Origin: Candidatus Thorarchaeota archaeon
Lineage (GTDB): Archaea > Asgardarchaeota > Thorarchaeia > Thorarchaeales > Thorarchaeaceae
NCBI GenBank assembly: GCA_016933575.1
Contig: JAFGAR010000040.1
Coordinates: 64,001 to 128,000, forward strand
Direction: 5' to 3'
DNA length: 64,000 nucleotides
The position numbers were made by a program, and so were the translations under genes. Positions 17,358 through 58,997 of this stretch are shown one piece after another. Each line of letters opens with the position of its first letter. Position 1 is the first letter of the stretch. The notes beneath the pieces are model-generated. The model made no database searches and was not told the DNA's origin. It worked only from the letters and a program-made list of their open reading frames with translations.

Positions 17358-18278
17358 TTATACGGTGTGTTGATCGATTTCAGTTAACACTCTCACAAGA
17401 TTACTAAATCTGTATTCCGTCCTCTTCCTTTTTTCAGAATGCGTGTGCAATTTCTCCTGTAAGTCTTTACTCAGAATATTGCGTTCCATCAGGTCATAGG
17501 TCTTCTCTCTGATCAGATCGCTTAGTTGTATTACTCTCTCAGACACCCCAACCATGAATCTGAGTGCCTCCAGCGCATCAATCTCCTGTGGCGGATTTTC
17601 CAACTCTAGTACCTGCGATAAGAAAATGACCTCAAGTCTGTAGAACTCTCTGTAGCAATCAACAAGTTCTATTAAAGCAATATCAGCTTGTGACTTCTTT
17701 AGTTTTAGCGTTAAAGCCGCCCATTGAGACCGAGTGGAGTTGATTCGTTTGATATGTCTCTTCATAGCTTTGGCATAATCGCTAATTGATTCACCTTTCA
17801 CTGAGTAATTAACTATCTCAGCTGCCATTTTCATAGAAACCTCTTTCACGTAGGTTGTGACTATTTCACCTCTTTCCGTATCTGTCAGGAATCCCTCTGA
17901 TGCCTCTCCAAGTGTTCGCAGATATTTATACAGACACTCTGAACAGATTATACCATCACTACTCTTCTCTGTGGATGTTACGAATTGTAGGGCACTATCA
18001 ACCTCTGAAGATTTGACGTCCTTGTCATTGATTCTTATCCTCTTGCCTTGACTCACACAATAACAATAGCCCTCGTTTCTATCAAGGTAGATTAGAAGAT
18101 AGCACATATTCTCATTGTTACTCTTATGCTCTAGGAGTTCTTCAATTGTATTAATTTGTTCGAAAAATGAAGGATCTACTGAGATTGCTCTGATTGGAAG
18201 AACATCATCGTTATTTAGGCACACTTTCTCTTTTTCTTCTATTCCAAATTCCTTGTAGCACGGACATCCCTTGACCAA
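17358..18278 (-). CDS. Hypothetical Cys-rich protein, paralog B (start may lie further upstream)
   Basis: Same motifs as 16313..17272. Confidence 0.8.
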   Translation of the reverse strand: MVKGCPCYKEFGIEEKEKVCLNNDDVLPIRAISVDPSFFEQINTIEELLEHKSNNENMCYLLIYLDRNEGYCYCVSQGKRIRINDKDVKSSEVDSALQFVTSTEKSSDGIICSECLYKYLRTLGEASEGFLTDTERGEIVTTYVKEVSMKMAAEIVNYSVKGESISDYAKAMKRHIKRINSTRSQWAALTLKLKKSQADIALIELVDCYREFYRLEVIFLSQVLELENPPQEIDALEALRFMVGVSERVIQLSDLIREKTYDLMERNILSKDLQEKLHTHSEKRKRTEYRFSNLVRVLTEIDQHTV

Positions 18279-18538
18279 GCATGTTGATGTCTGATTGGAG
18301 TCAACTGGATTTGAATCAAGATCAATTCCAGAGGCCTCATGCTTAATCTGTTACACGCTCCTTTGAGGGGGAATCCTCAGTATTAGATATAACCTAATAT
18401 GAATAGATATCAAGGTTTCTTATATGGACATCTAGCGTATCACTCGACGCGCCAAAGACAGGCCTCTTACCTTCTATACACTTTTCAATCATTCTCGCAT
18501 GTCGAAATAGTGTACTATCTGCTTGATTTTGAGATTGA

Positions 18539-57899: not shown

Positions 57900-57949
57900 T
57901 TCGGAAAATCGTAGTGTAAATCTTCCGAAAGTTCTTTCGGAAAATCGTA
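57900..57949. promoter_or_regulatory. Putative operator: 14-bp direct repeat plus 9-bp inverted repeat
   Basis: TTCGGAAAATCGTA at 57900 and 57936; TTCCGAAAG-TT-CTTTCGGAA at 57923-57942, in a divergent promoter region. Confidence 0.65.
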
Positions 57950-58052
57950 CCATATATTTGAGCAATACAAACCATTAAATATGTGGTACGTAAAACTTAA
58001 TGGAAGTGTGCTCTTTGGAGCTCGCCGCCGGATTGATCAGTGGGGTGCATCG

Positions 58053-58604
58053 TTGAAGCTAGTTGAATTGGCTCAGGAATCAGTTAGGATTCTGAAGGAA
58101 GCAGGAGAAGAGGGATTAAAGAGCGAAATACTGGCTCAGCAACTTGATACACCTAAGCGTCGTGTATACGATGTTGTAGCTGTGTTGAAAGCTTTGGGTC
58201 AGATAAAGACGAGTCGTAAGTTTGATGGTACAACCATAATATGGATTGATCGATCAAAGGACTATGTATCTAAGACAGCTCATGAAGAATTACGCACTCA
58301 ATTGACCCAAGAGAATGAACAACGAAAAGACTTGCAGGTCGAAGTTGCTGAACTAAAGGAACAACTTCGAATAGCAAGATCAAAACTGCGTCGAGATTCT
58401 CAAGCTATTGAAATGGCTGAGAAGACAGAATTTCTTACAACACAGCTTCGGGTTCGTGCTCTCTCCAGTAATGGAATAAAACGTGTTGAGCATTCTGGAA
58501 TCGAAGTCCTCATTGAGACCCATGAATCTGGAATGGTTGTTGATCCATCTGAAGTTGAAGTTGATGAGAACGAAATCCTTCTCAAGAATCTACAACGCAT
58601 TTAG
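58053..58604 (+). CDS. E2F/DP-like winged-helix transcription factor with coiled coil
   Basis: LAQQLDTPKRRVYDVVAVLKALG...IIW (E2F/DP RRxYD signature) followed by a heptad segment; TTG start after GGGGTG. Confidence 0.8.
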   Translation: MKLVELAQESVRILKEAGEEGLKSEILAQQLDTPKRRVYDVVAVLKALGQIKTSRKFDGTTIIWIDRSKDYVSKTAHEELRTQLTQENEQRKDLQVEVAELKEQLRIARSKLRRDSQAIEMAEKTEFLTTQLRVRALSSNGIKRVEHSGIEVLIETHESGMVVDPSEVEVDENEILLKNLQRI

Positions 58605-58610
58605 AATCTC

Positions 58611-58997
58611 TCAGACCATTTTGATATGAACAAGGCTTCCTCTTCTTACTTGTTTCAATGACATCAGATCGTTGTCACTCGAAGTTATTTTACCAATAAC
58701 ATTGACTTGACTATAGGTCCGCATGTCCTCAAGATAGATACAGAGTGAATCCCCTAATGGTAAATATGAAATATCTCCTCTCTTTACCGTGTTTGTCGGT
58801 TTTGCATTGCCCTTGGATATTCCTAGAGTTATTTGCATCTCATTCCTCATGAGAGCTGTACGACCTTCTAAAGGAAGTCTGAGTTTTATCTCTTCGACAA
58901 TAAGTGGCGCATGAATTCGGTTGATATAACCTCTAAGGATCAAATCTCCCTCAAACACAAACTCTAGATGAATATCAGTATCACTCAAATCTGGCAT
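58611..58997 (-). CDS. Cyclophilin-like fold protein (DUF369-like)
   Basis: APLIV...LPLEG...VKRGDISYLP.G.SLCIY...VNVIGK. Confidence 0.75.
   Translation of the reverse strand: MPDLSDTDIHLEFVFEGDLILRGYINRIHAPLIVEEIKLRLPLEGRTALMRNEMQITLGISKGNAKPTNTVKRGDISYLPLGDSLCIYLEDMRTYSQVNVIGKITSSDNDLMSLKQVRRGSLVHIKMV

Follow-up and report, generated by a model that had tools for sequence, protein, structure and literature searches.

An E2F/DP-family factor of Thorarchaeia with a predicted homodimeric coiled coil and candidate E2F-type sites upstream of thyA

The gene, its promoter and its neighbour

The window, by which we mean the whole 64,000-nt stretch analysed, contains a forward-strand open reading frame (57981-58604) in which all three peptide segments cited in the initial annotation occur. 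Read from the ATG at 57981, the form entered in the table of Eme et al. (2023), it encodes 207 aa; read from the TTG at 58053, it encodes 183 aa. The TTG is likely the true start, because the equivalent codon is used in the gene calls of most orthologues, distant relatives open with an equivalent MKL, the conserved hexamer GGGGTG just upstream can be read as a ribosome-binding site, and the ATG at 57981 falls inside a conserved TATA-like block (Table 1). The ATG was rejected as the start, since it overlaps the TTAAATA of this block and the hexamer precedes the TTG. The conservation of GGGGTG as DNA also accounts for the apparent conservation of 'WGA' upstream of the start. Residue numbers below refer to the 183-aa form.

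Table 1. Features of the E2F/DP-like locus (positions are those of the window)
Feature	Position	Strand	Basis and remarks
Two exact TTCGGAAAATCGTA repeats, 36 nt apart	57900-57913, 57936-57949	+	operator-like, not E2F-type
Inverted pair TTCCGAAAG / CTTTCGGAA	57923-57942	+	between the TTCGGAAAATCGTA repeats; right arm overlaps the second repeat
TTAAATA, TATA-like box in block CAATACAAAsCATTAAATA	57975-57981	+	conserved in Thorarchaeia orthologues; putative promoter element
GGGGTG, Shine-Dalgarno-like hexamer	58042-58047	+	5 nt before the TTG; conserved at DNA level in orthologous upstream regions; putative role
E2F/DP-like factor, coding sequence	58053-58604	+	183 aa from TTG, stop included; open reading frame and gene call
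E2F_TDP winged-helix DNA-binding domain, residues 4-65	58062-58247	+	PF02319, PDB profile matches, AlphaFold2 pLDDT 85-91
RRVYD (RRxYD motif), residues 36-40	58158-58172	+	R36, R37, Y39 and D40 invariant in alignments
Coiled-coil helix, residues 74-115	58272-58397	+	AlphaFold2 pLDDT up to 97; predicted parallel in-register dimer; aligns to the E2F coiled coil
Beta region, residues 123-166, four strands; candidate marked-box equivalent	58419-58550	+	AlphaFold2 strands; in the predicted dimer interface
C-terminal helix, residues 172-182	58566-58598	+	AlphaFold2; present in Thorarchaeia, absent from several other Asgard lineages
Cyclophilin-like gene (PF04126)	58611-58997	-	Pfam E = 1e-12; convergent, 6 nt past the stop of the factor

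In the AlphaFold2 model built from 52 sequences (mean pLDDT 83), the protein is composed of a winged helix (residues 1-66), a single long helix (74-115), four strands (133-136, 142-147, 152-156 and 161-164) and a terminal helix (172-182). It stops 17 residues past the beta region and is without a C-terminal transactivation or pocket-protein (Rb) binding region, which is consistent with the account of Asgard homologues given by Eme et al. (2023).

The promoter of the factor carries operator-like repeats. The 12-mer TTCGGAAAATCG has only two exact copies in the 3.47-Mb genome, and both lie in this promoter, 105-155 nt before the start. Variants of it are conserved before orthologues, and some of them are palindromic, e.g. 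TTTCGATTTATCGAAA at locus L053. In addition, many Thorarchaeia orthologues share, as DNA, a 5' leader (58003-58041) in which a short hairpin, GTGCTC-N4-GAGC, precedes CGCCGGATT; the leader may act as a downstream operator or as a regulatory element in the RNA.

By tblastn, the convergent cyclophilin-like gene was detected beside the factor in 74 of 80 loci, including those of Hel-, Hermod-, Baldr- and Odinarchaeia, and the loci without it include several that end at a contig end. The other neighbours are not common to the Thor and Hel loci.

A DNA-binding domain of E2F/DP type in a catalogued Asgard family

The N-terminal domain matches Pfam PF02319 (E2F_TDP) with 34.4 bits against a gathering cut-off of 25.7 (E = 1.9e-8), whereas TrmB reaches E = 0.11 on the same protein. 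When a family profile built from 21 diverse members was searched against all PDB sequences, the only winged-helix matches were E2F8 (E = 1.2e-12), E2F4 (2.8e-7) and DP2 (0.012); the remaining rows are weak coiled-coil matches with E = 0.24 or worse. A preference for TrmB or another generic winged-helix family, named in the initial annotation as the outcome that would speak against an E2F/DP assignment, was thus not observed.

The RRxYD motif is the base-contacting motif of the family, a role known from the E2F4-DP2-DNA structure 1CF7. Its residues R36, R37, Y39 and D40 are invariant in 52 sequences, as is W64, the terminal Trp of the wing, and according to the alignments the base-contact residues of E2F/DP are all retained in the Asgard family. 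In the recognition helix, Ala43 takes the place of the NVL Asn, as the initial annotation had remarked. This Ala is nearly invariant across the Asgard family, so on the alignments the replacement is a family-wide substitution and by itself no bar to E2F/DP membership. At the level of sequence, the profile matches and the invariant residues show a genuine E2F/DP-family DNA-binding domain, not a generic winged helix of TrmB or MarR type.

The gene is not new but a catalogued member of the published family of Asgard E2F/DP homologues (arCOG02749). The exact protein is listed as "E2F/DP" in the sequence table of eukaryotic signature proteins of Eme et al. (2023, Nature 618:992), under Thorarchaeia_Zod_maxbin_0292 at 121981-122604, which corresponds to 57981-58604 of the window on contig C5. 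The suspicion voiced earlier that E2F-like domains might already be listed among Asgard eukaryotic signature proteins was therefore justified, and the novelty of the gene had been overrated. In the same study, E2F/DP homologues are described in most Asgard groups (Suppl. 4.1.5), their base contacts are reported as conserved and similar DNA motifs are suggested from the contact residues; homology is held to end at the DNA-binding domain, the dimerisation domain being absent. Asgard E2F homologues are also mentioned in a review. The protein analysed here is the same, with the same DNA-binding domain and base contacts; compared with that account, our models and alignments add a coiled coil collinear with that of E2F, a predicted homodimer with the beta region in its predicted interface, and named candidate target sites.

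The family is small. Among 1.84 billion representatives, the family profile retrieves only 65 proteins at E = 1e-3 or better; the top matches are Asgard proteins of about 165-185 aa, and the tail consists of eukaryote-type E2Fs with PF16421. The named homologues of the protein itself are from Thorarchaeota, and the named relatives are from Hel-, Loki-, Odin-, Baldr-, Jord-/Freya- and Ranarchaeia, some of them called 'E2F family transcription factor' by NCBI. A family match was found in 74 of 151 sampled Asgard genomes; several of the taxonomic families in this sample have none (e.g. 0/17 and 0/29). The factor is nearly universal in its own taxonomic family (54/61). A search for longer or fused forms in the range of 437-2000 aa found none, which is weak evidence for their absence.

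Among the non-Thor Asgard genomes (G088, G099, G102, G106 and others), some have two family members, paralogues that might pair as heterodimers, and some have short forms whose match is confined to the DNA-binding domain.

Coiled coil, predicted dimer and beta region

The initial annotation had placed a dimerisation coiled coil directly after the DNA-binding domain, and this part of its description is borne out by the predicted helix 74-115 and by profile-profile alignment. Using hhalign, the Asgard alignment matched eight eukaryotic E2Fs with a probability of 98.9 (E = 1e-17, 111 columns), and 55 Asgard sequences matched 46 eukaryotic ones with a probability of 98.0 (E = 2e-13, 105 columns). 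Each alignment begins at helix 1 of the winged helix, extends about 45 residues beyond the domain into the coiled coil, and keeps one register behind the Trp. The coiled coil begins at an E2F-like distance from the terminal Trp, with high per-column alignment confidence, and the HMMER matches of the family profile to PF16421-bearing E2Fs span profile positions 13-116. On these alignments the coiled coil appears collinear with that of eukaryotic E2F; the evidence for homology is good, not conclusive, because coiled-coil segments can align by composition alone.

Two copies of the protein are predicted to form a complex with an ipSAE of 0.50, against 0.00 for the best of three controls. This mark is attained by 20 of the 30 proteins whose solved structures are pairs of one chain, and by one of the 23 with single-chain structures. 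The prediction runs agree in at least 88% of the contacts, with a partner pLDDT of at least 78. The contacts of lowest error are 101:101, 105:105, 98:98 and 94:94, and such pairs of identical positions along the helix indicate a parallel, in-register coil. The predicted interface comprises residues 2-11, 39-50, 69-115 and 123-166, and thus includes helices 1 and 3 of the winged helix. The genome (85.5% complete) holds a single E2F_TDP gene, and no gene for a DP partner was found in it, which is the reason for predicting a homodimer. The probable homodimer proposed in the initial annotation is therefore in line with the model. Since E2F-DP complexes have already been solved, the dimer score may partly reflect the memory of the model for such structures; a parallel homodimer is plausible, and the model supports binding of the two copies rather than showing it.

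The beta region is conserved among the Thor, Hel, Loki, Odin, Baldr and Jord relatives, and the pattern F-x-T-x-x-L-R-I-R ... V ... G-x-E-V-x-I-E ... G-x-I-V-x-P is retained from Thor to the Odin and Jord relatives at 25-35% identity. Its AlphaFold2 pLDDT was about 45-55 with 27 close sequences and rose to 73-87, with four strands, when 52 diverse sequences were used. The complete E2F layout claimed at the outset, i.e. DNA-binding domain, coiled coil and marked box, stood for its first two parts; the marked box was not recovered by profile methods. In the Pfam search of the protein, E2F_TDP was found, but neither E2F_CC-MB (PF16421) nor PF08781 matched even at E = 10, and the family profile retrieved no CC-MB chain from the PDB sequences. 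When the beta regions alone were compared by hhalign, on shallow as well as deep alignments and against reversed and column-shuffled controls, P was 0.34-0.37, and the score of 9.0 fell within the column-shuffled range and was no better than that of reversed templates.

Other comparisons gave leads. At low stringency, hhalign returned an identical strand-to-strand register for the four strands in three runs. When only the C-terminal part was considered, the closest named clusters of a protein language model were PF16421 (0.78 and 0.76), and those of an Odin/Baldr relative with 30% identity were again E2F_CC-MB (0.80 and 0.77), all below the trust level of the tool. Foldseek searches against the PDB with both AlphaFold2 models, and a search by VIA wide with the second model, were filled with generic winged helices; they contained no E2F CC-MB chain and were uninformative for the C-terminal half. 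A shape search of the ESM Atlas placed a eukaryotic E2F cluster third among family sets (TM 0.40 over residues 1-140), which is not decisive. We regard the beta region as a candidate marked-box equivalent, the language-model neighbours serving as leads only.

These results bear on the position of Eme et al. (2023, Suppl.) that the DNA-binding domain alone is homologous. The C-terminal half would then be an independently arisen, lineage-specific oligomerisation module, and its likeness to E2F would come from heptad composition and from a small beta meander of a common kind. The missing PF16421 and PF08781 matches, an hhalign result for the beta region within the shuffled controls and language-model similarities of 0.78-0.80, below the trust level, all fit such an origin. 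Against it stand a coiled coil that lies at the E2F distance from the Trp with high per-column confidence, two divergent relatives whose C-terminal parts are both nearest to PF16421, and one four-strand register in three independent runs. We consider this alternative possible but doubtful.

The resemblance to known eukaryotic systems is graded. With E2F1-6 (PF02319 + PF16421), the Thorarchaeia factor shares the RRxYD winged helix, the terminal Trp, a coiled coil in the same register and four strands following it. In contrast to them, it is half the size, lacks the transactivation and pocket-protein-binding tail and a detectable PF16421 signal, has Ala for the NVL Asn, and is predicted to pair with itself, there being no DP partner gene. 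With DP1/DP2 (PF02319 + PF08781) it likewise shares the RRxYD winged helix, but it matches DP (DP2, E = 0.012) more weakly than E2F. DP1 has a C-terminal helix after its beta strands, and one is predicted for the Thorarchaeia factor as well. The best PDB sequence match is the atypical E2F8 (4YO2, E = 1.2e-12), and E2F7/E2F8 likewise need no DP partner; their symmetry, however, comes from two tandem winged helices in one chain without a coiled coil, whereas here one domain is combined with a coiled coil.

E2F-type sites in Thorarchaeia promoters and their possible reader

A genome scan for the palindromic E2F site TTTSGCGCSAAA gave three copies. One of them, the perfect E2F-type palindrome TTTCGCGCCAAA, lies outside the window (G000:C5:20883; L084:1384-1395), 93 nt before a thymidylate synthase gene (thyA; TIGR03283, 226 bits) and in the gap between this gene and a divergent thioredoxin-like gene. 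The thyA upstream regions of 30 Thorarchaeia genomes from 16 genera carry TTTGGCGCG, TTTCGCGCG or GGCGCCAAA in either orientation, with poorly conserved surroundings. TTTSSCGC, the consensus of eukaryotic E2F1-6, is also found in Thorarchaeia promoters, and its frequency there was compared with that in all genes of the genome (Table 2). The thyA of TIGR03283 type is almost confined to Thorarchaeia, and two genomes with the factor (G020 and G030) have no site within 200 nt of thyA.

Table 2. Upstream regions with an E2F-type site within 200 nt upstream of the gene (orthologous promoters are not independent samples)
Gene	TTTSSCGC	TTSSCGC (relaxed)
thyA	19/30	29/30
AAA_5 ATPase gene (divergent from AAA ATPase gene)	11/30	17/30
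Polymerase D small subunit	11/29	17/29
Factor's own gene	0/74	2/74
All genes of the genome	47/2937 (1.6%)	123/2937 (4.2%)

The control word TTSSGCC was found in 0-3% of the same upstream sets. Genome-wide, 14 of the 34 copies of TTTSGCGCS (41%) are intergenic, compared with an intergenic share of 12.8% for the genome and 8-10% for control words. Many of the sites are near-palindromic and match the eukaryotic consensus including its T tract, and near-palindromy is what a homodimer would be expected to read.

Besides thyA, two TTTCGCGCC sites (G000:C138:7015 and 7031; L118, L119 and L162) lie in the 131-nt gap of the divergent AAA (356 aa) and AAA_5-AAA_lid_2 (577 aa) ATPase genes. In the AAA_5 promoters the site precedes a conserved TATA-like box by about 15-20 nt, and the site or a one-off variant of it is present in nearly all 30 promoters. 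A further conserved element, ATATTACATCTTCGGAG, was observed upstream of the TTTCGCGCC sites in these promoters. The signal upstream of the polymerase D small-subunit gene lies partly within a longer conserved element, CTTATTACAnTTCCCGC, and we regard this gene as a possible target on the strength of the upstream sequences. The promoter of MCM was tried as another target and left uncounted: GGCGCC-type sites occur there at a fixed distance from a TATA-like box in 10-12 of 30 genomes, but they overlap the end of the upstream gene, whose final codons specify Trp-Arg, and coding may account for their conservation. In the genome of the protein, no site was found at Cdc6-1, Cdc6-2, both PCNA genes or the polymerase D large subunit.

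What connects the factor with the GCGC sites is the conservation of its contact residues, and another factor could bind them. The E2F-like protein would then bind the TTCGGAAAATCG repeats of its own promoter and mainly regulate itself. No other exact copies of the repeat occur in the genome, variants of it are conserved before orthologues, some as palindromes, and the own promoter is without a GCGC site (no TTTSSCGC in 74 upstream regions). Nevertheless, the retention of every E2F/DP base-contact residue, and the fit of the sites to the eukaryotic consensus with its T tract and to the near-palindromy expected for a homodimer, make this an unlikely account of the data.

We therefore favour, with a probability of roughly 0.6, the joint reading that the protein is a Thorarchaeia member of the E2F/DP family which forms an E2F-DP-like homodimer and reads E2F-type sites at thyA and other genes. 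Two copies would pair in parallel through the coiled coil, their two beta regions packing together and their two winged helices touching via helices 1 and 3, and the outcome would be a symmetric homodimer resembling the E2F-DP heterodimer. This dimer would read near-palindromic sites of the eukaryotic E2F type, TTTSGCGCS, e.g. TTTGGCGCGAAA, which lie upstream of the TATA-like boxes of thyA, of the divergent AAA / AAA_5 pair and possibly of the polymerase D small-subunit gene, and it may switch these genes on or off. Without an Rb-binding or transactivation tail, such control would have to differ from that in eukaryotes.

A sensor regulator of the prokaryotic style, with a winged helix, a coiled coil and a ligand-binding domain as in BusR or TrmB and a beta region that binds a small molecule, is very improbable: the order of parts is identical, with parallel coiled-coil dimerisation (predicted here), and BusR chains rank near the top when the whole model is searched with Foldseek (E = 1.7e-3 to 9e-3), but these matches have a TM of about 0.3 and an rmsd of 16-19 A and so indicate likeness of layout only, the beta region of about 45 residues is too small for an RCK_C or a TrmB sugar domain, no TrkA_C or TrmB_C Pfam match or other sensor-domain signature is present, and the winged helix is of a different family, specifically the E2F/DP type.

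E2F-DP-Rb is the central switch for the entry of eukaryotic cells into DNA replication. We tentatively extend the favoured reading to a further proposal, to which we give less credence than to the reading itself: the homodimer may keep the ancestral, symmetric coiled-coil/marked-box module of E2F-DP and may read canonical E2F sites at genes for DNA precursors and replication (thyA, possibly the polymerase D small subunit). If so, the core logic of the E2F S-phase regulon would be older than eukaryotes, as would the pairing module, and E2F and DP would have arisen by duplication of a self-pairing factor. With the pairing module and the thyA/replication promoters already archaeal, the switch would have been assembled on an existing archaeal regulator instead of being a eukaryotic invention, whereas the published account sees in the Asgard homologues only a DNA-binding domain (Eme et al. 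2023). The predicted homodimer interface, the predicted site TTTGGCGCGAAA and its variants, the named target promoters and the conserved neighbour gene provide material for testing. Among these, the sites upstream of thyA are the most useful new lead, since a single recombinant protein and a handful of oligonucleotides would suffice to test them.

No clear theme unites the remaining genes of the genome that have a site upstream; among them are genes for a G1P dehydrogenase, an Arf-like GTPase, an EMC3-like protein and VWA proteins. Within the window, an E2F-type site, CGACGCGCCAAAGA (TCTTTGGCGCGTCG on the other strand), occurs at 18445-18458 (G000:C5:82445), about 170 nt before a 306-aa gene on the reverse strand (17358-18278) whose product gave no family match. 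In addition, the region G000:C64:156000-159300 resembles a replication-origin neighbourhood: an Orc1/Cdc6 gene, preceded by TCCAGTGGAAC-type origin boxes, is convergent with the polymerase D small-subunit gene, and the contig (C64) also carries MCM and two PCNA genes. Finally, the inverted repeat GATTGGCGCCAAACCTAGCGCCAATC between convergent genes (G000:C57:77376-77400) scores as an E2F-type site and resembles a terminator hairpin.
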